Assembly (NCBI GenBank): GCA_035548435.1
Contig: DASZSY010000036.1
Coordinates: forward strand, 1,262-65,261
Length of the DNA stretch: 64,000 bases
From: Candidatus Nanoarchaeia archaeon
GTDB lineage: Archaea > Nanobdellota > Nanobdellia > Pacearchaeales > GW2011-AR1
Reading direction: 5' to 3'
The notes below the pieces were generated by a model. That model had not been told where the DNA came from, ran no database searches, and was given only the letters and a program-made list of their open reading frames with translations. The stretch's first letter is position 1. Each line of letters starts with the position of its first letter. The translations under genes were made by a program, and so were the position numbers. This document shows, piece after piece, positions 5,409 to 48,472 of this stretch.

Positions 5409-6872
5409 GTGGCTGCAAAAGATAAACAAAAAATTGATGAGAAGGGTATTACTGTAAAGAAAAACGATGACTTCTCTGAATGGTACACTCAAGTAGTACA
5501 GAAATGTGAACTTTGTGACCTAAGATATAATGTAAAGGGATTTGTTGTATTTCAACCTTGGTCAGTTTTATCAATGGAAAAGATGTACTCATATTTCCAC
5601 AATGTTTTGCAGAGAAAAGGGCACAAGCCTTACTTTTTCCCAACGGTTATACCTGAAGGAAATTTAAAGAAAGAATCAAGCCATATTGCAGGATTCACTC
5701 CTGAAGTATTTTGGGTTACTGGAGCAGGAGAAGACAAGTTTGAAGAGAAACTTGCTTTAAGACCTACAAGTGAAACTGCATTTTATCAAATGTTTGGAAC
5801 ATGGATAAGAAGTTACAAGGATTTGCCTTTCAAGACATATCAAAGGGCAAATGTTTTCAGATATGAAACTAAAGCTACAAGACCATTTTTACGAAGCAGA
5901 GAATTTCATTGGATTGAAGCACATTGTGCACATGCCACCAAGGAAGATGCAATGAAGCAAGTGCACGAAGATATGGAAACAACTCAAGAAATACTTCACG
6001 ATGTATTTGGATTACCTTTCATATTTTTCAAAAGGCCCCAGTGGGACAAGTTTGCAGGAGCAGAAAATACTTTTGCAGCTGATGTTTTGAACCCTGATGG
6101 AAGAGTAGTACAGCAGCCGTCAACTCATATACTTAAACAAGATTTTGCTAAAGCTTTCAATGTAACATTTACTGATAAGGATTCAGAGCAAAAGCATGTA
6201 TGGATTACTTGTTACGGTCCTGCAATATCAAGAATATTTGCAAGTATAGTTATAGTTCATGGAGATGATAAGGGATTGAGATTCCCTTGGGATATTGCTC
6301 CAGTTCAAATTGCAATAGTTCCAATTGTTGATGATTCTAAGGTAATTAAGAAAGCAGAGGAACTTAAGAAAAAACTTTCTCAAAAATACTCTGTAGAGTT
6401 AGATGTTAGCGAGAAAAGTGCTGGAGAAAAATTCAATTATTGGGAGATGAAGGGAACTCCACTAAGAATAGATATTGGACTCAAAGATTTAGAAAAGAAG
6501 CAGATTACACTATTTAGAAGAGATTTAAACAAAAAAGAATCTGTGTCTGAGAAAGACTTTGAAGAATATGTAGAGAAAATTGCAAAAGAGTTTACTCATA
6601 ATTTGATAAAGGAAGCAGATAAGGTATTTGATAATAGAATTAAAACTGTAAAGTCATTTTCAGATCTTAAGAAAGCAATAGAAGAAGGGAACATTGCACG
6701 TTGTGCATTTTGCTCTGATGAGATGTCTGGCGCTAAATGCGGAGAGAAAGTTGAGAAAGAAGTTGGAGCTACTGTTAGGGGAACCAAGCTTGAGACAGAG
6801 AAAGCTAGCGGAGAATGTGTTGTTTGCGGAAAGAAAGCCAGTACAATAGTGTATATTGCAAGGCAATACTAA
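5409..6872 (+). CDS. proS: prolyl-tRNA synthetase, archaeal/eukaryotic type (GTG start)
   Basis: Class II ProRS motifs; C-terminal zinc-binding domain ending in a conserved terminal Tyr (IARQY). Confidence 0.9.
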   Translation: MAAKDKQKIDEKGITVKKNDDFSEWYTQVVQKCELCDLRYNVKGFVVFQPWSVLSMEKMYSYFHNVLQRKGHKPYFFPTVIPEGNLKKESSHIAGFTPEVFWVTGAGEDKFEEKLALRPTSETAFYQMFGTWIRSYKDLPFKTYQRANVFRYETKATRPFLRSREFHWIEAHCAHATKEDAMKQVHEDMETTQEILHDVFGLPFIFFKRPQWDKFAGAENTFAADVLNPDGRVVQQPSTHILKQDFAKAFNVTFTDKDSEQKHVWITCYGPAISRIFASIVIVHGDDKGLRFPWDIAPVQIAIVPIVDDSKVIKKAEELKKKLSQKYSVELDVSEKSAGEKFNYWEMKGTPLRIDIGLKDLEKKQITLFRRDLNKKESVSEKDFEEYVEKIAKEFTHNLIKEADKVFDNRIKTVKSFSDLKKAIEEGNIARCAFCSDEMSGAKCGEKVEKEVGATVRGTKLETEKASGECVVCGKKASTIVYIARQY

Positions 6873-6877
6873 AAACA

Positions 6878-7408
6878 ATGACTTATACTTTTTCAAGTGA
6901 TTTGGAGGATTGTTCCAGAAAAGATTTCGATATTACTTCTAAAATGTCTGAAGATTTTTTTGGAATGACTACTGACTCTGAGCAGTTTCAGGCATCTGAG
7001 GAGAATAAAGACTTTTTATTTAAACATTTGAAAAATTTTGTTAATATAATCAGATTCAATAAAGAAGTTATAGGATATTCTTTTATTATTCCCTCTAATA
7101 AGAAACTAATGTCTTTGTTTTTGAAAGGTAAAATAACTGAGAGTGAATTATTTGATAGAGTCAAATCAGAAAAAATAAATGAAAATAATTTTGATTGCCT
7201 TTATCTTTGTTCGGCTATTATTAAAGAAGAACATAGAGGCAAGGGCTTGTCTATTGAAGGATTCAAAAAACTAATTGTTAACCTGATAAAAATTAGGGGG
7301 AATGTTAAACCAGACTTATTCTTTTGGGAGTATTCTAAAGAAGGAAGTATTGTCGCTAAAAAAATTTCAGAACATTTCGGTTTTAATTTATTTAAGAGCA
7401 ACAATTAG
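6878..7408 (+). CDS. hypothetical protein, possibly a GNAT-type acetyltransferase
   Basis: An ATG at 6878 avoids overlap with proS; EEHRGKGLSIEGFKKLI resembles GNAT motif A. Confidence 0.4.
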   Translation: MTYTFSSDLEDCSRKDFDITSKMSEDFFGMTTDSEQFQASEENKDFLFKHLKNFVNIIRFNKEVIGYSFIIPSNKKLMSLFLKGKITESELFDRVKSEKINENNFDCLYLCSAIIKEEHRGKGLSIEGFKKLIVNLIKIRGNVKPDLFFWEYSKEGSIVAKKISEHFGFNLFKSNN

Positions 7409-7442
7409 GAACTTTTTAATATGCTTATATTTAGTATCTTAT

Positions 7443-8711
7443 ATGGTAGAAATTGATTTTAAGGCAGGAGATAGAGTTAAATTAAGACTTGTAACAGAAG
7501 AAGTTGAAGGGCAGTATGTTGAAAGTTCTGATGCACAAATTGTTTTGCTTAAACTAGAATCAGGTTATAATATTGGTATAAAAAAGGAAAATATTCTTTC
7601 TTCAAGAAAATTACCTGATAAAGAAGAAAAAATTCAAGAGCCAAGACAACAAAGACAAAGTAAAAATCTCCCCAAAATAGCAATAGTTGTTACAGGAGGA
7701 ACTATAGCTAGTAAAGTTTCTTACAAGACTGGAGGAGTAGAGCCTATAGAGAATCCGCAAGACTTCCTTGATCTTTATCCTGAAGTTGAAGAGATTGCAG
7801 AAATAAAAAAGCTTGAAATGCCATTTAGAATGTTATCTGAAAATATGGACTCTGAACACTGGATAAATATTGCCCAGACCATAAAACCCTTGCTTGAGGA
7901 CAGTGAAATACAAGGAGTAATACTTACACATGGTACGGACACACTGCACTACACTGCTGCAGCTTTGAGTTTCTTTTTAGGAAGACTAAACAAACCTGTT
8001 GTTTTGACTTACAGTCAAAAAAGCATCGATAGGGCGAGTAGCGACGCTAAGTTAAACTTAATTTCAGCTGTGAAAATGGCCTTGAGTGATTGTGCAGAAG
8101 TAATGCTTGTTGGACACGGTACAACAAATGATGATTTTTGTTATGCACTACGTGGAACAAAAGTAAAAAAAATGCACAGTTCAAAGAGAGCAGCATTTTT
8201 ACCTGTAAATACAGAGCCACTAGCGAAGATTTCCAAAGATAAAATAGAATTCTTGCAAAAATATAATCCTCGAAGTGATAAAAAAGTTGAAGTTGACACT
8301 TCTTTTACAGATAAAGTAGCTTTGCTCAAGTTTTATCCAGGACAAGATCCTAGCATTCTTGATTATTATGCCTTAAGTTACAAGGGAATTGTAATTGAAG
8401 GAACTGGACTTGGACATGTTGCTGCTTCTGGAGCAAATAAGAGTTGGCTGGCTGCACTAAAGAAGCACATAAGAAATGGACTTGTTGTTTGTATGACAAG
8501 TCAAACAGTTTTTGGAAGAGTTGATCCTTATATTTATTCAGCAGGAAGAGAAATACTTGATGCAGGAGTGATTTATCTTGAAGATATGCTTTCAGAAACT
8601 GCTTTTGTTAAATTAGGGTTTGTACTAGGCCACGCAGGTTGGAAAGTTAAGGCAAAGGAAAAGATGCTACAGAATATGGCCTACGAGCTTAATCAAGTTC
8701 ATTCTAGTTAG
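7443..8711 (+). CDS. gatD: Glu-tRNA(Gln) amidotransferase subunit D (GatD), asparaginase-like
   Basis: IAIVVTGGTIASK, LTHGTDT and EGTGLGH asparaginase-family motifs; about 420 aa from the in-frame ATG at 7443. Confidence 0.85.
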   Translation: MVEIDFKAGDRVKLRLVTEEVEGQYVESSDAQIVLLKLESGYNIGIKKENILSSRKLPDKEEKIQEPRQQRQSKNLPKIAIVVTGGTIASKVSYKTGGVEPIENPQDFLDLYPEVEEIAEIKKLEMPFRMLSENMDSEHWINIAQTIKPLLEDSEIQGVILTHGTDTLHYTAAALSFFLGRLNKPVVLTYSQKSIDRASSDAKLNLISAVKMALSDCAEVMLVGHGTTNDDFCYALRGTKVKKMHSSKRAAFLPVNTEPLAKISKDKIEFLQKYNPRSDKKVEVDTSFTDKVALLKFYPGQDPSILDYYALSYKGIVIEGTGLGHVAASGANKSWLAALKKHIRNGLVVCMTSQTVFGRVDPYIYSAGREILDAGVIYLEDMLSETAFVKLGFVLGHAGWKVKAKEKMLQNMAYELNQVHSS

Positions 8712-8715
8712 TATA

Positions 8716-8734
8716 GTAACTTTTAAGGAGTTAC
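8716..8734 (+). promoter_or_regulatory. palindromic operator-like site GTAACT-N7-AGTTAC, immediately upstream of TATA (TTTAAATA at 8745-8752) of the 8774 gene
   Basis: GTAACTTTTAAGGAGTTAC, a perfect 6-bp inverted repeat; a near-identical site precedes the next gene. Confidence 0.5.
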
Positions 8735-8773
8735 AAAACAAATATTTAAATAGTGGACAAAATATTCTTACAT

Positions 8774-9514
8774 ATGAGATTTAGTCATCTTGACGCAGCA
8801 ATTCCTGAAGGAAGAGAAGAAGATTTCTTTTCATTGTTTGGTAGACTACAAGAACCAACAAAATCTAATTTTGAGTTAGTTTTAGATCTTGGCGCTTATA
8901 TGAATGGTACACCTTTCAATGATAGATATGCTGTTACTGGGAGCTATGCTATTTTGTCTCATTTGATGAAACTTCACTCTCCAGAAATTGCTTCAACTTG
9001 GAAAGGTTTCAGTAATCCTACAATTGTTGGAAATGGACAAGTTCTTGGAGCACTACGCGCAGGATATCATACTAAGGGTGGACCTCAAAACAGAACTGAT
9101 ATGGTTCCTGTTTTTGATATGCTATTAAAGCTTGAAGGAAAAGATGAAAGATTAACTTTTGTTTACAATGAAGTTAGAAAGAATCCTGGAAGTGTTGAAA
9201 CAAACGAACACTTCGGAGTTCCATTGAAGGTAAATTCTCCTGAATCTTTACTGGAGCATAGACTTGGAAGACCTATGACAAGCCAGGGAAACATAGGAGA
9301 CACTTTGACTTTAGTTCATATAATGGAACAAAGAGGGTATTCTCCCGACAGCGTTGCAGAATATGCTATTGCGAATAAACAAGCAGATGAGCTTGCAAAG
9401 AGAATTAAGACAGGATATGACAAATTTGGAAGAGATAGATTTGGAGTATTTCCAAGCGATAAGTTTGTAGCCACATTACTAAAAAGACTTCACAAAGTAC
9501 GCCCAGTAGCATAA
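8774..9514 (+). CDS. hypothetical protein, first gene of the atypical cassette
   Basis: Start placed at the ATG 22 nt downstream of the TATA box, because the upstream GTG at 8753 would overlap the TATA; GC and codon usage (CGT, CCG, GGT-rich) deviate from neighbours; no recognisable domain. Confidence 0.45.
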   Translation: MRFSHLDAAIPEGREEDFFSLFGRLQEPTKSNFELVLDLGAYMNGTPFNDRYAVTGSYAILSHLMKLHSPEIASTWKGFSNPTIVGNGQVLGALRAGYHTKGGPQNRTDMVPVFDMLLKLEGKDERLTFVYNEVRKNPGSVETNEHFGVPLKVNSPESLLEHRLGRPMTSQGNIGDTLTLVHIMEQRGYSPDSVAEYAIANKQADELAKRIKTGYDKFGRDRFGVFPSDKFVATLLKRLHKVRPVA

Positions 9515-9533
9515 TTCTAAAGGGTTATTAGTG

Positions 9534-9552
9534 TAACTATGCAGGAGTTACA
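9534..9552 (+). promoter_or_regulatory. palindromic operator-like site GTAACT-N7-AGTTAC upstream of TATA (TTTAAAAG at about 9562-9570) of the Fic-like gene
   Basis: GTAACTATGCAGGAGTTAC followed by CAAA, same architecture and spacing as 8716-8734. Confidence 0.5.
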
Positions 9553-9591
9553 AATAGGAAGGTTTAAAAGGTTATAAGTTTTCAGTGAAAT

Positions 9592-10593
9592 ATGCACATA
9601 ATTGAAGAAAAACTACTACTTGATATAGAATCTGCAAAATCTAGATTGGACAGAAAAAGGTTAGATGATTTTGTTAGGGAGATGTTTAAATGCTTGTCTA
9701 GAGAAACTATGGAAAATGCTACTATTCAAGATGCAGATAATGCTAGAAGAAAGTCAGAAGTTTTCGCAAATTTTGAGATTGCATGGGATTATGGTACCCG
9801 AAACTTCAAAGAACCGGTAGATTTTGCTTATTTAGGCGATGTTGCTGGAAGAGTTGAACCAGGTTTATGTGCTCCAGGACAACACTATGCAAGTTTTCGT
9901 AATGGTTCTGCAACTTGTTTTGCAGGTTATTTACCTCCTGCTGATGAATCTAGAGTCAGAGAACATCTAGCTAGATCTCTTGATGTTTTGGAAAGTCAAG
10001 ATTGGCATCCTATTGAAAAAGCAGTTTTCTTGAATTTTCACATAACAAGAATTCAACCATTCCAAAATGGAAATAAAAGAACTGCAAATATAGTAACAAA
10101 TGCTACTTTAAAAAATAATGATTTTTTCCCAATTTCTATAAGTCAAAAGAACAAATCTCGTTATCAAGGATACTTGGCAGGTGCACTTAAAGACTTTGAA
10201 AACATGGGCGCAACTGTAGACGATCCTCTCCAACCTTATAAGTTTCCGGGCTTTGGTCAAAGACAATTTTACGATTTTCTTGCTAGAATAGAACTGTCTG
10301 AATTAAAGTGCGCAGAGGATAAATTATCAGGTTTATCTCATTACACTTTATCTTTCAATAATGCTCCAATAAATACTTTGTATGGAGTAAAGCATCATGT
10401 TAGAAATTGGCTTCAAGGACATAACATGTTACATCAGGTTAGATTAGATGTTGCTAGAAAGGAAATTACCGTTGCTGGAGATATTCCTCTTCATTCTTTA
10501 GAAATTGCAGTGGGAAAAATAAAAGGAATTGGTAAATATGAGATTAAGCCGTATAAACCTGCGAATGGTTCTTCAGGTCCCTTTAGTGTATAA
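9592..10593 (+). CDS. Fic/Doc-fold protein with a degenerate active-site motif (QPFQNGNKRTAN instead of HPFx[DE]GNGRxxR)
   Basis: The motif region is encoded at about 10038-10090; the NGNKR core resembles Doc-type HxFx(D/N)(A/G)NKR, but the canonical catalytic His position is Gln. Confidence 0.55.
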   Translation: MHIIEEKLLLDIESAKSRLDRKRLDDFVREMFKCLSRETMENATIQDADNARRKSEVFANFEIAWDYGTRNFKEPVDFAYLGDVAGRVEPGLCAPGQHYASFRNGSATCFAGYLPPADESRVREHLARSLDVLESQDWHPIEKAVFLNFHITRIQPFQNGNKRTANIVTNATLKNNDFFPISISQKNKSRYQGYLAGALKDFENMGATVDDPLQPYKFPGFGQRQFYDFLARIELSELKCAEDKLSGLSHYTLSFNNAPINTLYGVKHHVRNWLQGHNMLHQVRLDVARKEITVAGDIPLHSLEIAVGKIKGIGKYEIKPYKPANGSSGPFSV

Positions 10594-10594
10594 A

Positions 10595-11197
10595 ATGACA
10601 ACTAAAAAATGTAAGGGGCACAATTTTCTCGATGGGTATTATTCTACACAGAGGGGCTTAGCAGATTATTCAAGAGTTCATCAATTGGATTTTATTAGAC
10701 TTATAGAAGAAGCTAAATTGCAAGAAGGCACAGTAGTTGATTTGGGATGTGGTAATGCAAATTTTTTGGCTGATTTAAAGAAACTATTCCCAAATATGAA
10801 AGTTTATGGAGTTGACAAAGTACAGTATGAATCCAGACTTTCCGAGGATGAATTAATACAAGCAGATATCTCTAGAGGCGTTAAATGTCTAGATAGTGAA
10901 ATTGCAGACCTCGTTGTTAGCACTACTTTAGTGCAATGGTTGCCTGCAGACTCGGTGGACCCTTTTTATGTTGAAGTAAATCGTTTAATGAAAAAAGAAG
11001 GAAGAGGAATAGTTTTTCCTTTAGCTTCTAAAGAAGTATCTGAAGAAAGGGGAAGGTATTTTGTTAACGGATTAGAGTTTGAGAGACCAGTAAATATTAG
11101 AAAGATTAAGTTACCTGAAACTTTAGATGGTAAACTAGCTTCAGCATATCAGGTTTTATTTGGAGATTTTAGCGGCTTTCTAGACCTACATAATTAG
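10595..11197 (+). CDS. class I SAM-dependent methyltransferase
   Basis: VVDLGCGNANFLADL glycine-rich motif I; start at the ATG 1 nt after the Fic-like stop. Confidence 0.6.
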   Translation: MTTKKCKGHNFLDGYYSTQRGLADYSRVHQLDFIRLIEEAKLQEGTVVDLGCGNANFLADLKKLFPNMKVYGVDKVQYESRLSEDELIQADISRGVKCLDSEIADLVVSTTLVQWLPADSVDPFYVEVNRLMKKEGRGIVFPLASKEVSEERGRYFVNGLEFERPVNIRKIKLPETLDGKLASAYQVLFGDFSGFLDLHN

Positions 11198-11444
11198 CTC
11201 TATTGAAAATATCGTTTATTTTTTCTTCACTGAAGTTGTAGGGATTTAATTTCAATAGGTGTTTTATTTCAGAATCACTAGGTTTTAATTCAGGTTCCAT
11301 CCAATAAAATTCTCTCATATCTATTCCTTTTCTTTGAAATCCTTCTAATAGTGCACTTATTTCAGAATCATTCTCCCTATGTTTTAAGTAAAATGTTATA
11401 AAATCTAAGGTAAACTGTTCTGTTGGTTTTCTTAACAGAGACAT
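11169..11444 (-). CDS. hypothetical small protein (91 aa), convergent with and slightly overlapping the methyltransferase 3' end
   Basis: ORF only; no recognisable motif. Confidence 0.3.
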   Translation of the reverse strand: MSLLRKPTEQFTLDFITFYLKHRENDSEISALLEGFQRKGIDMREFYWMEPELKPSDSEIKHLLKLNPYNFSEEKINDIFNRANYVGLESR

Positions 11445-11534: not shown

Positions 11535-12983
11535 ATGGACTATAGTAAGATAGGACTTAAAGCTGGAATTGAAATACATCAGCAGTTGGAAACAAGTGAA
11601 AAGCTTTTTTCTCATGCTCCTAGTTACTTAAGAAATGAAAAAGCAGATTATATTGTGCAAAGAAAACTACACAAAGTAGCTGGAGAACAGGGACAGGTTG
11701 ACGCAGCTGTTAAACATGAGGCCGAGCAAGACAGAGAATTTCATTATGAAGGATATAATGACACAGTTTCTCTTGTGGAACTAGACGAAGAGCCACCATA
11801 TATGGTAAATCAAGAAGCTTTGGAAGAATGTTTGAAAGTTGCACTGCTTTTGAATTGTGAAATTTATCAAAACACGCAAATAATGAGAAAGACGGTTATT
11901 GACGGAAGCAACACTTCTGGCTTTCAGAGAACTGTTCTAATAGGCCACGATGGATACGTTGAAACAAGTTTTGGTAAGGTAAGAATAGATACTGTTGTTT
12001 TAGAAGAAGACAGCGCTAGAATAATAAGCAAAGATGAAAGAAAGGCAGTTTACAGACTTGATAGACTTGGAATTCCATTAATTGAAATTGCTACTGCTCC
12101 TGATATGAACACTCCAGAGCAAATAAAAGAAACTGCATTAAAGATAGGAGAAATACTAAGAGCCTGTAATGTTAAAAGAGGACTTGGAACAATAAGACAG
12201 GACGTTAACGTTTCTATAAAAGGACATGACAGAGTAGAAATAAAGGGATTTCAAGATCCTAAGATGATGATTGAAACTGTAAATAAGGAAATCTTAAGAC
12301 AACAAAAAGATATTTCCGAAGGAAAAGTTAAAGGAGAAGTGCGTGGAGCATTGGAAACAGGAGAAACTGAATTTTTAAGACCTATGCCTGGAAAAGCAAG
12401 AATGTATCCTGAGACAGATTTACCTTTACTTTATGTTTCTCTTGATTTAATAAATAAATTAAAGAAAAATCTTCCTAAATTAAAGCAGGAAATAAAAGTT
12501 GAATTAAAGAAGAAAGGTTTGAATGATGAAATGATTAAACTTGTTTTGGAAGATGGAGTTGATGAGTTTGAGACATTACTTAACGTATATGACAAAGATG
12601 CTAATCTTGTTGCTAAAATGATAACTTTATGGAGACAAGAATTTTCAAGCAAAACAAAGAAGAATTTGGATGAAGTAAAACAAATACTAAATGAAAAAAT
12701 ACTGGAAAAAATACTTGAAAACTTAGCTACTGGAAAAATAAGCGATGGAGATGTTAAGACAATAATGCTTAAGGTCTTGGAAGGAAAGAATGTAGAAGAT
12801 GCTTTGAAAGTTGAAAAAAGCGATGATAATACACTTGAACATGGAATAAGAGAAATTGTTAAAGAAAAACCTGGACTAAGAGCAAATGCTTATATGGGGC
12901 TTGTAATTGCAAAGTTTGGAGCAAGCGTTGATAAAAGAAAAGCAATGGAAATCTTAAACAAAGTTGTGGGGGACGGGAAATGA
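11535..12983 (+). CDS. gatE: Glu-tRNA(Gln) amidotransferase subunit E (GatE), compact form
   Basis: GIEIHQQL N-terminus and RPMPGKARMYPETDLP motif (GatE-specific versus GatB EDYRY); only 482 aa, so it lacks most of the canonical GatE insertion. Confidence 0.7.
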   Translation: MDYSKIGLKAGIEIHQQLETSEKLFSHAPSYLRNEKADYIVQRKLHKVAGEQGQVDAAVKHEAEQDREFHYEGYNDTVSLVELDEEPPYMVNQEALEECLKVALLLNCEIYQNTQIMRKTVIDGSNTSGFQRTVLIGHDGYVETSFGKVRIDTVVLEEDSARIISKDERKAVYRLDRLGIPLIEIATAPDMNTPEQIKETALKIGEILRACNVKRGLGTIRQDVNVSIKGHDRVEIKGFQDPKMMIETVNKEILRQQKDISEGKVKGEVRGALETGETEFLRPMPGKARMYPETDLPLLYVSLDLINKLKKNLPKLKQEIKVELKKKGLNDEMIKLVLEDGVDEFETLLNVYDKDANLVAKMITLWRQEFSSKTKKNLDEVKQILNEKILEKILENLATGKISDGDVKTIMLKVLEGKNVEDALKVEKSDDNTLEHGIREIVKEKPGLRANAYMGLVIAKFGASVDKRKAMEILNKVVGDGK

Positions 12984-15088: not shown

Positions 15089-15639
15089 TAAAAAAGAAGC
15101 AAGCTAAGGAAGTTAAGAAATCTAAGCCTTCAAAGGTAGTTAAACCTTCAAAGGTCTTGACAAAGAAAGCCCAGAAGGAAGAGGAAGAAGAGCATAGCGG
15201 AGGAGCCAGCTTAGATGATGCTTTCGGTGATGATGAAGATGTTTCCTATGCAGAAGCAAAGCCTAAAAAAGAAAAGAAAAAGAAAGTGGATGAAGATGAA
15301 GAGCTTGATGATGAAGTTGAAGATGAACTTGATGAAATACAACATGCTGAAAATTCTGTTGAGAGAGGAGAAATAGAAATCAATCAATCAAAGCCAGTTT
15401 CTAAAATAAAGAAGGGCGATAAGATAAAAATTGACGGAGTCGAGTATGAAGTTGATGCTCATTACGTTCTTATCGACCATGGAACAACAAAGGAAATGAC
15501 TATTGAAATTTTTGATCCTAAGAGAGATAAAGATTTCCAACTTAGATATTTTGACGATCAACTTGAAGCAACTCTTGACTTGTATGAACTACAAGAAATT
15601 CTTTATATCAAGAGGGCTTTCAAGAAAGTAGAATGGTAA
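15082..15639 (+). CDS. Lys/Glu-rich low-complexity protein with a conserved-looking C-terminal domain, embedded between gatC-like and gatA
   Basis: Overlaps both neighbours by 7 nt (operon-like); KKEKKKK / DEDEELDDEVEDELDE tracts; C-terminal roughly 90 aa not low-complexity. Confidence 0.45.
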   Translation: MVVKKKQAKEVKKSKPSKVVKPSKVLTKKAQKEEEEEHSGGASLDDAFGDDEDVSYAEAKPKKEKKKKVDEDEELDDEVEDELDEIQHAENSVERGEIEINQSKPVSKIKKGDKIKIDGVEYEVDAHYVLIDHGTTKEMTIEIFDPKRDKDFQLRYFDDQLEATLDLYELQEILYIKRAFKKVEW

Positions 15640-16943
15640 TCGGACCAATTGAGCAAAAGGCAGCTACTCTTATGCAGAAAATAAGAAATGAGAATAAGAA
15701 GCTGAACATTCTTTTACAAGTTAACGATAAGCTGATTGAACAGGCTGCAGCACTGGATGCTAAAAAGGCAAAGGGCAAGCTTGCTGGAAAGTTTATTGTT
15801 GTTAAAAGTAATATAATGGTTAAAGGAATGATTGCAAATTGTGCTTCTAAGACTGTTGAAAACTTTGTTTGTCCTTATGATGCTACAGTAATTGAAAAAA
15901 TAAAAGCAGAAGACGGACTTATTGTTGGAATGGCGAACATGGATGAGTTTGCATGTGGAGGAAGCGGAGAGAACAGTGCATACGGAGCTACAGAAAACCC
16001 TGCCGCCTTAGGATATATTCCTGGAGGTTCAAGTTCTGGAAGCGTTGCAGCTGTTGCAGCTGGATTCTGTGATATTTCTCTTGGAAGCGATACCGGGGGA
16101 AGTATAAGAAATCCTGCAAGTCATTGTGGAGTTGTTGGACTAAAACCAAGCTATGGATGCGTTAGTAGATATGGACTGGTTGATTTGGCCATGTCTTTAG
16201 ACCAGATAGGGCCAGTTTCAAAGAACGTAGGAGATGTTTTTCTTTTACTTGATATAATAAAAGGAAAGGACCCAAGGGATCCTACAACTCTTGATTTTGT
16301 TTCTCATTCTTCTCCTTTGAATAATGCAAGAATAGGAATTTTGAGGATAAACGGAGTTGACTCTAAAATACAGAAGATGATTGATGTGCAAGTTAAAAAC
16401 TTACATAAAATATATGGATGGCAAGTTAAGGAAGTTAACATTGATGCAATAGACTTGGCAGTTGAGGCATATTATCCATTAGTTTATTCTGAATGTTTTT
16501 CTTCAACAAGAAAATTTGATGGAAGAAGATATGGACTAAATATAAACGAATCTGCTGGGCCAGAATTACTTCGAAGAATGATTGGAGGAAGTGAAATAAC
16601 TGAGGCTGAACATGCTGGAGCTTACTATCAGAAGGCACTAGAAGTTAAAAGATACATAAAAAAACAGTTTGAAGAGGTTTTCAAGAGCTTTGATGCAATT
16701 ATCTTACCTACTTGCCCTGGACTTCCTTGGAAAATAGGAGAAAAAATGAAAGTTGAAGAAGTTTATGCATATGATGCCTGTACAATTCCTGCAAACTTGG
16801 CTGGAATTTGCGCCATATCTATTCCTCTAGGAACCTTAAACAAAATTCCTGTAGGTATGCAGATATTCTGTAAATCTGGAGATGAAACAAAACTTCGCAC
16901 AATATCCGAATTGACCTCTAAATTAGCACCATTATCTTTATAA
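15633..16943 (+). CDS. gatA: Asp/Glu-tRNA amidotransferase subunit A (GatA), amidase-signature family
   Basis: GGSSSGSVAAVAAGFCDISLGSDTGGSIRNPASHCGVVGLKPSYG amidase signature; GatA-like N-terminus. Confidence 0.85.
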   Translation: MVIGPIEQKAATLMQKIRNENKKLNILLQVNDKLIEQAAALDAKKAKGKLAGKFIVVKSNIMVKGMIANCASKTVENFVCPYDATVIEKIKAEDGLIVGMANMDEFACGGSGENSAYGATENPAALGYIPGGSSSGSVAAVAAGFCDISLGSDTGGSIRNPASHCGVVGLKPSYGCVSRYGLVDLAMSLDQIGPVSKNVGDVFLLLDIIKGKDPRDPTTLDFVSHSSPLNNARIGILRINGVDSKIQKMIDVQVKNLHKIYGWQVKEVNIDAIDLAVEAYYPLVYSECFSSTRKFDGRRYGLNINESAGPELLRRMIGGSEITEAEHAGAYYQKALEVKRYIKKQFEEVFKSFDAIILPTCPGLPWKIGEKMKVEEVYAYDACTIPANLAGICAISIPLGTLNKIPVGMQIFCKSGDETKLRTISELTSKLAPLSL

Positions 16944-25747: not shown

Positions 25748-25781
25748 GGAAGTACTAGTGAGTATAAAAATATAGAGAAAA

Positions 25782-25854
25782 CGTCCCCTGGAAGACTCGA
25801 ACTTCCGACCCCATGATTAACAGTCATGTGCTCTACCGGCTGAGCTAAGGGGAC
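25782..25854 (-). tRNA. tRNA-Asn (anticodon GTT)
   Basis: Reverse complement folds: acceptor GUCCCCU/AGGGGAC, anticodon stem CAUGA/UCAUG with loop CUGUUAA, T-stem GGAAG/CUUCC. Confidence 0.8.
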
Positions 25855-25875
25855 ATACTAAAGGCAAATAAAATT

Positions 25876-25943
25876 GTTATTTAAAAGTTCCTGTTTGGAA
25901 CTTTTAAGCCACAAAAATCTTTGATTTTTGATGTTTAAAGCTT
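25876..25943 (-). promoter_or_regulatory. conserved ~70-nt element, copy 1 (perfect palindrome AAAAGTTCC-N5-GGAACTTTT), carrying the TATA box TTTTAAATA about 25 nt upstream of tRNA-Asn
   Basis: Near-identical to 48396-48472; on the minus strand reads GGCTTAAAAGTTCC...GGAACTTTTAAATAAC. Confidence 0.5.
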
Positions 25944-32321: not shown

Positions 32322-33059
32322 CTATTGGGACCTTGCCATTTTCCATAAAAATTCAAAGTAAACTTTAAAGGAGTCAGCTATTTTCTTATTTTTAATCATG
32401 AAAACGAACGGCTTTTCTTCCCACATAAATATGTATACATACTCATCGAAAATATCCATTGCTATTGGAGAAACGTATCCCTTAGGCATGTATTTTATTT
32501 CAGCGTTATTTGACTTGATTGTTTCTTTTTGAAATTCTTTAGAAGAAATATCTGCAATTATCTTTAGTTTTTGTTTTTTCTCACAAGATCTTATGTTCAT
32601 ATTAGATAGGAATGTTTGTAAGTTTTCTGAATTGTACTGCTGGTGTGAAAAACCTATTATTTTAATTTCCCCCTTGTTTGGGCAGTCATCAATTATCTTC
32701 TTGAAAGCCGTTTTGAATCCTTCATATCCTTCATATATTGCAGTTATTGTGTTATTTTTGTCTGTGGACTGGATATCTTTTAATTGAGGTAATAATTTTT
32801 CTATTTTTGTAATCTTTTCTGTTTCTATTTCTTTTAATTTCTGAGGGTTGGAAGCACTAAAGTGTTTGCCGTCTTTTTGTATATTATATTTAACTAGACC
32901 CTTTATTGTAAGGCTATTAAGAGTTTCATATACTCTAGAATTTGCTATTTTTGTTTCTTTTATTATACTTCCTGTGGTGGTTTCTCCATTTTTTAATAAA
33001 AATAGATAGATTTTGCTTTCGTTTTTTGTTAGCCCCAATGATTCTAGTTCTTTTTCCAT
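32322..33059 (-). CDS. TrmB-family transcriptional regulator
   Basis: N-terminal TrmB-type winged helix-turn-helix (LGLTKNESKIYLFLLKNGETTTGSI...SRVYETLNSL). Confidence 0.7.
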   Translation of the reverse strand: MEKELESLGLTKNESKIYLFLLKNGETTTGSIIKETKIANSRVYETLNSLTIKGLVKYNIQKDGKHFSASNPQKLKEIETEKITKIEKLLPQLKDIQSTDKNNTITAIYEGYEGFKTAFKKIIDDCPNKGEIKIIGFSHQQYNSENLQTFLSNMNIRSCEKKQKLKIIADISSKEFQKETIKSNNAEIKYMPKGYVSPIAMDIFDEYVYIFMWEEKPFVFMIKNKKIADSFKVYFEFLWKMARSQ

Positions 33060-33143
33060 ATCTATTAGAGATTTTTCTTCTATTTATAGTTTCTCCTTAA
33101 CGGGAGAAATATAAGATAAATATGCCTTTTCTGTTACCACTGT

Positions 33144-33848
33144 ATGAAAACAACTTTACCTGAGATAACACAAAGCTTTATTGCAAAGATAAAGCAAGAT
33201 GCTGCAAAAGGTACGTACTCTGTAGATGTATCTGGAATTAAAATTGATGTATTTCCTTACATTTTCCCTCCTTGTTCTCCATTTTCTGAAAGTACTCATA
33301 CTGTTTATGATCAATTTGGAGATTTAAACGGAAAAGAAGTACTAGATATAGGTACAGGTACAGGGATTCAAGCAATACAGGCTAGTTTAGCCGGTGCTAA
33401 GCAGGTTGATGCCTGCGACATATTGTCTGAGGCAGTAGATTGTGCAAAACATAATGTGAATATAAATGGATTATCTCAAAAAATAAACTGTTTCCAAAGC
33501 GATTTATTTTCAAATGTTCTATTAAAAAGATATGATTTAATTATTGCTAATCTTCCAATAGTTGATTGTGCTGAGACTGATTTAAGATTACATTCTTTAA
33601 TTGATCCCTCATTCATGTATCACGAAAGATTGTTTGCAGATTCTAAACCTTATCTTTCAGACACAGGTAAAATAACTTTATGTCATGCAGATTTACAATC
33701 AAAAGATGATTTTGGCAAGCTTGAAGGTCTTGCCACTAAAAACGGTTTCGATTATACTATACGAAAAGAAGTATGCTCTTTAGGACATACCTGGAGAAAT
33801 TACGAATTTAGTTTATCAAAGAAAATAGGTGCAGTTAAAGATGACTGA
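33144..33848 (+). CDS. SAM-dependent methyltransferase of the HemK/PrmC small-domain type, with a degenerate NPPY motif (NLPI)
   Basis: VLDIGTGTGIQAI motif I; DLIIANLPIV where PrmC/Mtq2 has DLIVSNPPYI. Confidence 0.55.
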   Translation: MKTTLPEITQSFIAKIKQDAAKGTYSVDVSGIKIDVFPYIFPPCSPFSESTHTVYDQFGDLNGKEVLDIGTGTGIQAIQASLAGAKQVDACDILSEAVDCAKHNVNINGLSQKINCFQSDLFSNVLLKRYDLIIANLPIVDCAETDLRLHSLIDPSFMYHERLFADSKPYLSDTGKITLCHADLQSKDDFGKLEGLATKNGFDYTIRKEVCSLGHTWRNYEFSLSKKIGAVKDD

Positions 33849-47347: not shown

Positions 47348-47441
47348 TGGCCCCGACGGGATTTGAACCCGCGACACCTGGATTTCGCCAACCATGAAGG
47401 TTTAAGAGTCCAGTACTCTGACCGGGCTGAGCTACGAGGCC
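47348..47441 (-). tRNA. tRNA-Lys (anticodon CTT) with a roughly 19-nt intron at the canonical 37/38 position
   Basis: Reverse complement folds: acceptor GGCCUCG/CGGGGCC, D-stem GCUC/GAGU, anticodon stem CUGGA/UCCAG with the loop interrupted by an intron (AACCUUCAUGGUUGGCGAA), T-stem GCGGG/CCCGU; ends GGGGCCA. Confidence 0.7.
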
Positions 47442-48395: not shown

Positions 48396-48472
48396 GTTAT
48401 TTAAAAGTTCCTATTGTTCTTTTTTTGAACTTTTAAGCCAAGAAAAGCTTTGCTTTTCTATGTTTAAACCTT
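48396..48472 (-). promoter_or_regulatory. conserved ~70-nt element, copy 2, carrying TATA TTTTAAATA about 30 nt upstream of tfs
   Basis: Roughly 85% identical to 25876-25943 outside a variable spacer; hairpin arms AAAAGTTC/GAACTTTT. Confidence 0.5.

Follow-up and report, generated by a model that had tools for sequence, protein, structure and literature searches.

A conserved Fic-fold protein with glutamine for the motif histidine and lysine for the second glycine, encoded between gatD and gatE in a DPANN archaeon

Results

The fic locus and the altered Fic motif

The gene described here, fic, encodes a Fic-fold protein in which the motif histidine is replaced by glutamine, and lies in a 64,000-nucleotide stretch of DNA from Candidatus Nanoarchaeia archaeon (GenBank assembly GCA_035548435.1, contig DASZSY010000036.1, positions 1,262 to 65,261), which we call the window. 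The gene order around it is a prolyl-tRNA synthetase (ProRS) gene, a small open reading frame (ORF), gatD, an orphan ORF of 253 amino acids, fic, a methyltransferase gene, an ORF of 91 amino acids on the minus strand, and gatE (Table 1). The 333-residue product of fic is 100% identical to an entry that its source names 'Fic family protein [Candidatus Nanoarchaeia archaeon]', and is laid out as N-terminal helices at the former position of an inhibitory helix, a Fic core, and then a long connecting helix that leads into a ferredoxin-like domain at the C-terminus.

Table 1. Features of the fic locus, in window coordinates.
Feature	Coordinates	Strand	Basis
gatD (Glu-tRNA(Gln) amidotransferase subunit D), upstream flank	7434..8711	+	Pfam GatD_N, Asparaginase, Asparaginase_C; synteny
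Second palindrome copy (core 8716-8734), upstream of the 253-residue ORF	8713..8737	+	position weight matrix, 21.3 bits
253-residue ORF between gatD and fic (source annotation: start Met8, 246 residues)	8753-9514	+	
Palindrome, candidate operator, GTAACT-N7-AGTTAC at 9533-9551	9530..9554	+	directly upstream of the promoter block
BRE/TATA-like promoter block GGAAGGTTTAAAAG	9557..9570	+	21 nucleotides before the fic ATG
fic, Fic-fold protein, 333 residues	9592..10593	+	intact ORF; Pfam Fic above cutoff
Clade-specific motif Q46-D47-A-D49-N50 (QDxDN)	9727..9741	+	alignment A1 and 40 clade representatives
Flap region, ~residues 99-116 (Y..A..R103....PP116)	9886..9939	+	aligns with FICD 'FRTTQVLVG-HHIPP'
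Segment HITRIQPFQNGNKRTAN of the initial annotation	10039..10089	+	translation
Variant core motif Q155-P-F-Q-N159-G-N-K162-R163 (canonical H-P-F-x-(D/E)-G-N-G-R)	10054..10080	+	register from phmmer and family profile
C-terminal beta-alpha-beta-beta-alpha-beta (ferredoxin-like) domain, ~residues 248-320, invariant K267	10333..10551	+	secondary structure in two models
S-adenosylmethionine-dependent methyltransferase gene	10595..11197	+	Pfam Methyltransf_11/25
91-residue ORF between methyltransferase and gatE, overlapping the methyltransferase 3' end	11169-11444	-	no family match
gatE (subunit E), downstream flank	11535..12983	+	Pfam GatB_N; tblastn, 51-74% identity to GatE of other loci

The protein belongs to the Fic fold, as the initial annotation of the DNA had supposed. 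Pfam Fic (PF02661) matches residues 113-172 at an expectation value (E) of 5.7e-9 and 37.1 bits (gathering cutoff 24), the family profile finds FICD at E 4e-17, and an AlphaFold2 model built on 21 homologues (predicted local distance difference test score, pLDDT, 85.6; predicted template modeling score, pTM, 0.78) has FICD, BT_2513 and SoFic as Foldseek matches (E 4.6e-8 to 1e-5, template modeling score ~0.5) and shows the alpha-helical Fic fold, in which the motif lies on a loop joining two core helices. The match to the Fic motif is far beyond chance. In a phmmer search against PDB sequences, IQPFQNGNKRTAN pairs residue for residue with IHPFIDGNGRTSR of FICD, the family profile aligns to FICD in the same register, and the register that had been proposed is the one that the Pfam, phmmer and profile alignments give. 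Where the canonical AMPylating motif is HxFx(D/E)GNGRxxR, the window protein has Q-P-F-Q-N-G-N-K-R-T-A-N; register and translation together establish the four substitutions read initially (His to Gln, Asp/Glu to Asn, second Gly to Lys, last Arg to Asn), the last of them at N166, where canonical Fic has its second (gamma-phosphate) Arg. The segment had been placed at 10038-10090 and is present there on the plus strand, with its true ends one base inside each coordinate. No second Fic-like motif, and hence no intact one placed elsewhere, occurs in any frame of the window.

The C-terminal domain is present in canonical relatives too; when modeled separately with AlphaFold2 and compared with the PDB by Foldseek, it gave only generic ferredoxin-like matches (HMA, CheA P2, an EF2 domain, acylphosphatase; best E 6.4e-3) and no informative structural neighbor.

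Conservation of the altered site

An indexed search yielded 21 proteins of 36-100% identity (P0001-P0021, the twin of the window protein included), and in their alignment (A1) R153, I154, Q155, F157, N159, N161, K162 and R163 are invariant, as is an N-terminal cluster of Q46, D47, D49 and N50. Among 1.84 billion cluster representatives searched with a profile, 4136 matched at E < 1e-3, and the best 40 of these form the clade of the window protein. Across these 40 representatives Q155, N161, K162 and R163 never vary, F157 is kept in 39 and N159 in 34, and the QDxDN motif is nearly fixed (D47 in 38, D49 in 39, N50 in 38), the confidence of this segment in the structure model being modest (~65-76). 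In the hmmalign and MAFFT alignments alike, D47 falls on the inhibitory Glu of (S/T)xxxE, the class II motif of canonical relatives. In place of the class II motif (S/T)xxxE(G/N), for which canonical relatives have HSxLLE, the clade reads (A/S)-(S/T)-I-Q-D47, with Glu changed to Asp and the spacing of the Ser shifted. The clade has also changed Asp to Asn in the motif (34/40), lost both a conserved His seven positions upstream and, after the motif, the conserved E-R pair, and has N, S or G at position 166, which is R in 106 of 107 canonical relatives. The flap, with which Fic enzymes dock the target strand, retains R103 (39/40) and P116 (40/40), both of which are conserved in canonical relatives also.

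The next tier of relatives, from Woesearchaeota, Nanoarchaeia and Pacearchaeota, has equal length and architecture, and most of these proteins carry canonical IHPFxDGNGRxxR together with an N-terminal HSxLLE, the class II inhibitory (S/T)xxxE. The initial annotation had raised the possibility that H150, the His of 'FHITRI', stands in for the catalytic His; this found no support, since H150 is equally conserved in canonical relatives in which the catalytic His is intact (70/107) and is therefore not a compensatory change.

The species-representative genomes that carry the clade are labeled Woesearchaeota or Nanoarchaeota. Two further clade-bearing genomes (loci L015 and L022) are labeled 'uncultured Methanosarcinales'; their loci resemble Woesearchaeota ones, the gene order around fic in L015 is the same as in L001, and we suspect a fault of binning or labeling.

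Coupling and recurrence of the substitutions

We tallied the residues at the His and second-Gly positions in 164 related DPANN Fic proteins whose alignment covers the motif. The canonical pair (H,G) occurs in 104 and the pair (Q,K) in 57; two proteins have (H,S), one has (H,H), and the intermediates (H,K) and (Q,G) are both at zero. Because decay would scatter residues, yet glutamine is found in only one alternative state, this pattern points to selection. The altered site is under strong purifying selection, which, together with the strict coupling of H to Q with G to K, argues against simple decay.

In a crude neighbor-joining tree computed with the motif columns removed, the 40-member clade is monophyletic, and 16 other Q/K proteins are scattered among H/G proteins, most of this scatter being unreliable at the distances of the tree. 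Two cases are solid. One is the Q/K protein P0098 (…IQPVADTNKRTAR, IQPVADTNKR), which is 48% identical over its full length to the H/G protein P0093 (…IHPFVDTNGRTAR, IHPFVDTNGR); the two have in common an unusual Thr in the loop, and 199 of 200 bootstraps place an H/G protein nearest to P0098. The other is a second Q/K family of ~250 residues (14 sequences, down to 27% identity), in which I-Q-P-x-x-x-G-N-K-R is invariant and the D, F and last R are nearly so. The SxxxE inhibitory Glu is retained in this family along with the last Arg and the metal-binding Asp, and the kept inhibitory element hints that there may be an activity to inhibit. The switch from H/G to Q/K thus appears to have arisen independently more than once. 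Given the strict coupling and these recurrent cases, Q with K is a second, distinct form of the Fic site that selection maintains rather than a degenerate one.

The gatD-fic-gatE slot and other chromosomal settings

In locus L006, whose Fic is 62% identical to that of the window, fic lies directly between gatD and gatE, and in L020 (37% identical) the order is gatD-epimerase-fic-gatE. Canonical H/G Fic proteins (HPFxDGNGR with SxxxE) occupy the gatD-fic-gatE slot in at least five loci: gatD, canonical fic and gatE are all present in L024, L028 and L060, and L029 and L049 have only fic-gatE on short contigs. GatE of the canonical-Fic loci is 51-65% identical to that of the window, and the L024 Fic is just 22% identical to the window Fic. 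Among the matches listed in a scan with an alignment of canonical relatives (A4; pattern R[IV]HP[FL]x[DE]GNG), most were unrelated Fic loci, and a tblastn re-screen of them gave at least four gatD/gatE-linked loci. Because the same slot holds a canonical Fic in other loci, the variant must have arisen within this slot, from a canonical Fic of class II.

The clade occurs in four classes of arrangement, each next to translation genes: with gatDE; after rpl13-rps9 (L004, L005, L007, L011, L012); convergent with rps10-EF1alpha(-EF2) (L009, L017, L018, L019, L021); and beside a protein kinase, near a PUA-methyltransferase and the gene for archaeal initiation factor 5B (aIF5B; L001, L008, L014, L015). 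A member of the second, ~250-residue Q/K family adjoins a YchF/OLA1-like GTPase. The association of the clade with translation genes is suggestive.

A comparison of the ~250-residue fic neighbors across loci found no universal partner gene, and on this ground we rejected a two-gene system. Only two pairs of neighbors are related, a Pkinase in L001 and L009 and an AbiEii-like nucleotidyltransferase in L005 (6990-7763, plus strand) and L018 (3865-4638, minus strand). The latter two, at 26% identity (E 1e-20; Pfam AbiEii 1.3e-5), adjoin fic in two different chromosomal arrangements. Serine recombinase/resolvase genes lie directly downstream of fic in three loci of the rpl13-rps9 arrangement (L004 7001-8364, L005 7760-8299, L012 2384-2920), and these loci may mark a hotspot of integration or a mobile-element boundary.

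In the window itself, the methyltransferase gene is probably cotranscribed with fic, its likely ATG lying 1 nucleotide past the fic stop codon; none of the other fic loci compared has a homologue, and the gene is specific to the window genome. The 253-residue ORF has no match in Pfam, NCBIfam or PADLOC and just four homologues in 5.8 billion clusters, and is a lineage-specific insert. The mechanically called gatD ORF opens at 7302 and overlaps the preceding ORF (6815-7408); GatD_N and homologues point to a start at ~7434 (MVEIDFKAGD...). An Amidase-family, GatA-like protein (15633-16943, plus strand; Pfam E 1.4e-111) is encoded a few genes downstream of gatE, and the region unites gatD, gatE, this amidase and ProRS.

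A promoter block and a palindromic element upstream of fic

In most fic loci a AAAGGTTTAAATA-type block stands at a constant 21-22 nucleotides before the ATG. From the general character of archaeal promoters, we take it to be a transcription factor B recognition element with a TATA box (BRE/TATA), which implies that fic would have its own promoter and a leaderless or near-leaderless mRNA. The palindrome directly upstream of it occurs twice in the window in its exact pattern, against 0 expected by chance; the second copy, with a TATA block of its own, precedes the 253-residue ORF (8713-8752). With a position weight matrix (PWM) trained without the window, the two window sites rank first and second of ~128,000 positions, at 22.9 and 21.3 bits, the next site, which is the best away from this cluster, scoring 14.3 bits.

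The palindrome is also kept ahead of fic in L006 and L020, although divergence between the proteins is saturated. Leave-one-out scans put the fic-upstream site first within its entire locus for 11 of 27 loci and second for another 2, among them loci outside the training set and loci with a canonical Fic. The element is not universal: PWM scans found none upstream of fic in the rps10-EF1alpha loci. In L001 it is not the terminator of the upstream gene, because that gene is divergent. We regard the palindrome as a candidate operator that accompanies both fic and the genes inserted beside fic (window, L007, L011), a distribution that suggests a small regulon sharing a putative operator. The extra palindromes outside the window lie upstream of unannotated genes that adjoin fic, a pair of ORFs of 134 and 87 residues in L007 (4190-4214) and a 264-residue ORF in L011 (6977-7001).

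A weak PWM match (13.9 bits) lies at 33130-33154 (minus strand) of the window, in the divergent intergenic region of a TrmB-family regulator gene (32322-33059, minus strand). Its promoter spacing is unlike that of the fic sites and it overlaps the start of the divergent gene; as a weak lead, it allows the speculation that the TrmB-family protein might be the cognate regulator of the palindrome.

Other features of the window

A 94-nucleotide tRNA at 47348-47441 (minus strand; Rfam 55.7 bits), to which ARAGORN gives an abnormal 4-base anticodon, is probably an intron-containing archaeal tRNA. Two promoter-like sites (~25891-25925 and ~48411-48445, both on the minus strand) each have a box GGCTTAAAAGTTC[AC]AA upstream of GGAACTTTTAAATA, and one of them is directly upstream of tRNA-Asn (25781-25855).

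Discussion

The N-G-N-K-R core and the missing final Arg make the loop of the window protein Doc-like at the level of the motif, as the initial annotation had it, and the comment that the protein is much larger than Doc also stands, at 333 residues with extra domains. Its assignment to the Doc sub-family does not extend to descent. The Doc model TIGR01550 (DOC_P1) reaches 14.2 bits, well short of its cutoff of 38.65, and because relatives of the same architecture carry HPFxDGNGRxxR with SxxxE, and the best matches are FICD-like class II Fic proteins, the window protein is by descent a class II, FICD-like Fic and its resemblance to Doc is convergent. With FICD/HYPE and other Fic structures (PDB 4U04, 6I7G; BT_2513, 3CUC; SoFic, 3EQX) it shares the core helices, the flap, the loop register and an N-terminal helix at the (S/T)xxxE position, and with canonical class II-type DPANN relatives the whole 330-residue architecture and the chromosomal slot. 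It differs from FICD in its motif, Q-P-F-x-N-G-N-K-R-x-x-N, in the change of the inhibitory Glu to Asp within QDxDN, in the lack of a tetratricopeptide repeat (TPR) domain and in its ferredoxin-like C-terminal domain. AMPylation by the canonical mechanism is not expected of it.

Two described groups come closest at the motif. In Doc of the phage P1 Phd-Doc system, a Lys at the second-Gly position inverts ATP, so that phosphate rather than AMP is transferred and EF-Tu is phosphorylated (2014 review, PMC4177925). The Doc motif, HxFx(D/N)(A/G)NKR, has this Lys for the second Gly, allows Asn at the acid position and is followed by no second Arg, and 'NKRTA' is identical in Doc and the window protein; the fic genes lie near translation factors, and the target of Doc is the translation factor EF-Tu (PMC4177925). 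The window protein has the F, N, G, N, K and R of this motif with Gln for its His. Doc keeps the catalytic His and is a single domain of ~125 residues, built on a six-helix core and paired with the antitoxin Phd, whereas the window protein has a class II-type N-terminus, has no adjacent Phd-type antitoxin or other partner gene, and fails the DOC_P1 model. The combination of Gln at the catalytic His position with N-K-R was itself described in silico as Doc 'clade D2', with motif Qx[F|Y]x[D|E][G|V]NKR, in 45 usually single-domain sequences from bacteria only, and its conservation was taken to argue that D2 proteins may not be dead (Khater & Mohanty 2015, PMC4454073). The window clade matches D2 at Q, F, G and NKR; it is unlike D2 in being archaeal, multidomain and derived from class II Fic, with Asn at the acid position (34/40) and the QDxDN motif. 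Related DPANN Q/K families with Asp at the acid position do fit the D2 motif.

The idea of a His-less NKR protein is therefore not new (D2, 2015). What is new is the archaeal, multidomain, class II-derived clade with Asn at the acid position and QDxDN, the strict and recurrent Q/K coupling, and the conserved gatD-fic-gatE slot, common to canonical orthologues, with its candidate operator. Full-text literature searches found no later characterization of D2-type Q...NKR proteins, nothing on Fic proteins in Woesearchaeota or Nanoarchaeota or on a link between Fic and GatDE, and no previous description of the gatD-fic-gatE arrangement or the operator. The window protein is a conserved, real and selected variant of a known fold and not a broken enzyme.

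From the fold, register, conservation, Q/K coupling, descent, synteny and cis-element observed here we infer the ligand binding, chemistry and target of the window protein. Its most likely function, to which we give a rough probability of 0.4, is that of a Doc-like phospho-ligand-binding protein, possibly a phosphotransferase, acting on the translation machinery. The ancestor would have been a self-inhibited class II Fic AMP-transferase encoded between gatD and gatE, and the descendant a chromosomal, non-toxin protein specific to Woesearchaeota/Nanoarchaeia, in which the active site would have been rebuilt rather than lost. Lys162 stands in place of the second Gly of the anion hole, Gln155, which would orient rather than deprotonate, in place of the general-base His, and Asn159 in place of the metal-binding acid, with the gamma-phosphate Arg gone and the former inhibitory Glu turned into the invariant Asp of QDxDN. 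A Doc-like mode is suggested by the mechanism reviewed for the Doc Lys (PMC4177925) together with the intact, invariant N-K-R loop, which may still bind a nucleotide or phospho-ligand in the manner of Doc. Lys162 with Asp47 and Asp49 could then supply what His and Asp gave before, and Asp47, Asp49 and Asn50, at the place of the class II inhibitory Glu, might take over metal binding, the base function, or both. The retained flap would dock a protein target, plausibly of the translation apparatus, and transfer of a phosphoryl or phospho-ester group to the docked component seems the most plausible outcome. Expression would run from the gene's own leaderless-type promoter, with the conserved palindrome, a candidate operator, in front.

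Several points weigh against this proposal. His is, to our knowledge, the general base in every characterized Fic/Doc reaction, and Gln cannot deprotonate a hydroxyl. The clade has lost the metal-binding Asp, the gamma-phosphate Arg and the E-R pair, which fits a non-catalytic binding module equally well, and the proximity of D47 and D49 to K162 would follow only from homology to class II inhibitory helices. The number of independent Q/K origins comes from a crude neighbor-joining tree in which only two or three are robust, and full-text searches found no characterization of any Q/K Fic protein. The link to translation is circumstantial: translation genes are plentiful in the small genomes of DPANN archaea, only four independent arrangements were seen, the genes of the rps10-EF1alpha class are convergent with fic and not co-transcribed, and the distant relatives P0041, P0054 and P0069 have no adjacent translation gene, the nearest approach being an arginyl-tRNA synthetase (ArgRS) gene ~3 kb from P0041.

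Nearly as probable is a conserved pseudoenzyme, in which the Fic fold would serve as a non-catalytic binding or scaffold module. Lys162, neutralized by Asp47/Asp49 and hydrogen-bonded to Gln155, would permanently fill the former phosphate site, and a partner, for example GatDE or a translational GTPase, would be regulated by binding through the flap and the C-terminal domain. In such a protein the general base and the metal-binding acid could be replaced, and so could the gamma-phosphate Arg and the E-R pair after the motif, while the flap and C-terminal domain stayed conserved, and its genes would have housekeeping-type synteny with no toxin-antitoxin partner, all as seen here; it explains the strict Q-K coupling just as well, Q being found only ever with K as expected of contacting side chains. 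Yet N161, K162, R163 and QDxDN are invariant over a deep divergence, a pattern that suits a site for ligand binding or catalysis better than a filled cavity. In other Q/K families the metal-binding Asp and the last Arg are kept along with the inhibitory Glu, residues that would be pointless in a dead site, and the identical two-residue switch recurs.

The acidic residues could also be read as the mark of a hydrolase or of an enzyme that removes a modification. As far as is known, the motif His is required for deAMPylation by FICD too. In an enzyme of this kind, resembling FICD in its deAMPylation, Asp47 and Asp49 would position a water and the N-K-R loop would hold a target phosphodiester; D47 stands at the position of the Glu tied to deAMPylation in the FICD literature, the DxDN cluster is newly fixed, and canonical AMPylating paralogues in the same lineages make a dedicated eraser conceivable. 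With that His absent, however, and with the variant replacing rather than accompanying the canonical Fic at the gatD-gatE slot, we judge this quite improbable.

Very much less probable is a Doc-type toxin of a toxin-antitoxin or anti-phage module on a mobile element. The Doc-like N-K-R loop, weak PADLOC matches to Fic-based candidate systems (PDC-S04, 1.1e-7; SoFic, 7e-7), and the serine recombinases (L004, L005, L012) and AbiEii-like nucleotidyltransferase (L005, L018) beside fic would suit one. Against these stand the failed Doc model, synteny with core translation genes that is kept across proteins just 22% identical, a homologue of the inhibitory helix built into the N-terminus instead of an antitoxin, and the lack of a conserved small partner gene, fic in L006 lying directly between gatD and gatE; with no partner gene, a toxin-antitoxin or defense module in any consistent sense is disfavored. 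A decaying gene or chance motif match, which the difference at four of the six specified canonical motif residues might suggest, is refuted by an ORF intact at 333 residues, by the same variant motif in A1 and the 40 clade representatives, by the profile match to FICD and by a confident structure model.

The motif His is used, as far as we know, in every characterized Fic/Doc reaction, including AMPylation, UMPylation, phosphocholination, phosphorylation and deAMPylation, and the coupled, invariant and recurrent His-less state suggests either an unrecognized chemistry or a conserved class of Fic pseudoenzymes. The natural pair P0093/P0098, which differs essentially at two positions, is clean experimental material, as are the canonical and variant positional orthologues in the gatD-fic-gatE slot. 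Slot and operator together point to an unstudied regulatory link of a Fic protein with translation in DPANN archaea. We think it unlikely, though worth stating, that the Q/K state is a third catalytic mode of the Fido fold, in which the loop Lys would be the key residue (as base, electrostatic catalyst or covalent nucleophile), repeatedly recruited by DPANN archaea from AMPylating ancestors into a dedicated, operator-controlled circuit that modifies the tRNA-dependent Gln (GatDE) pathway or translational GTPases. If true, it would amount to a built-in translation throttle for host-dependent archaea.

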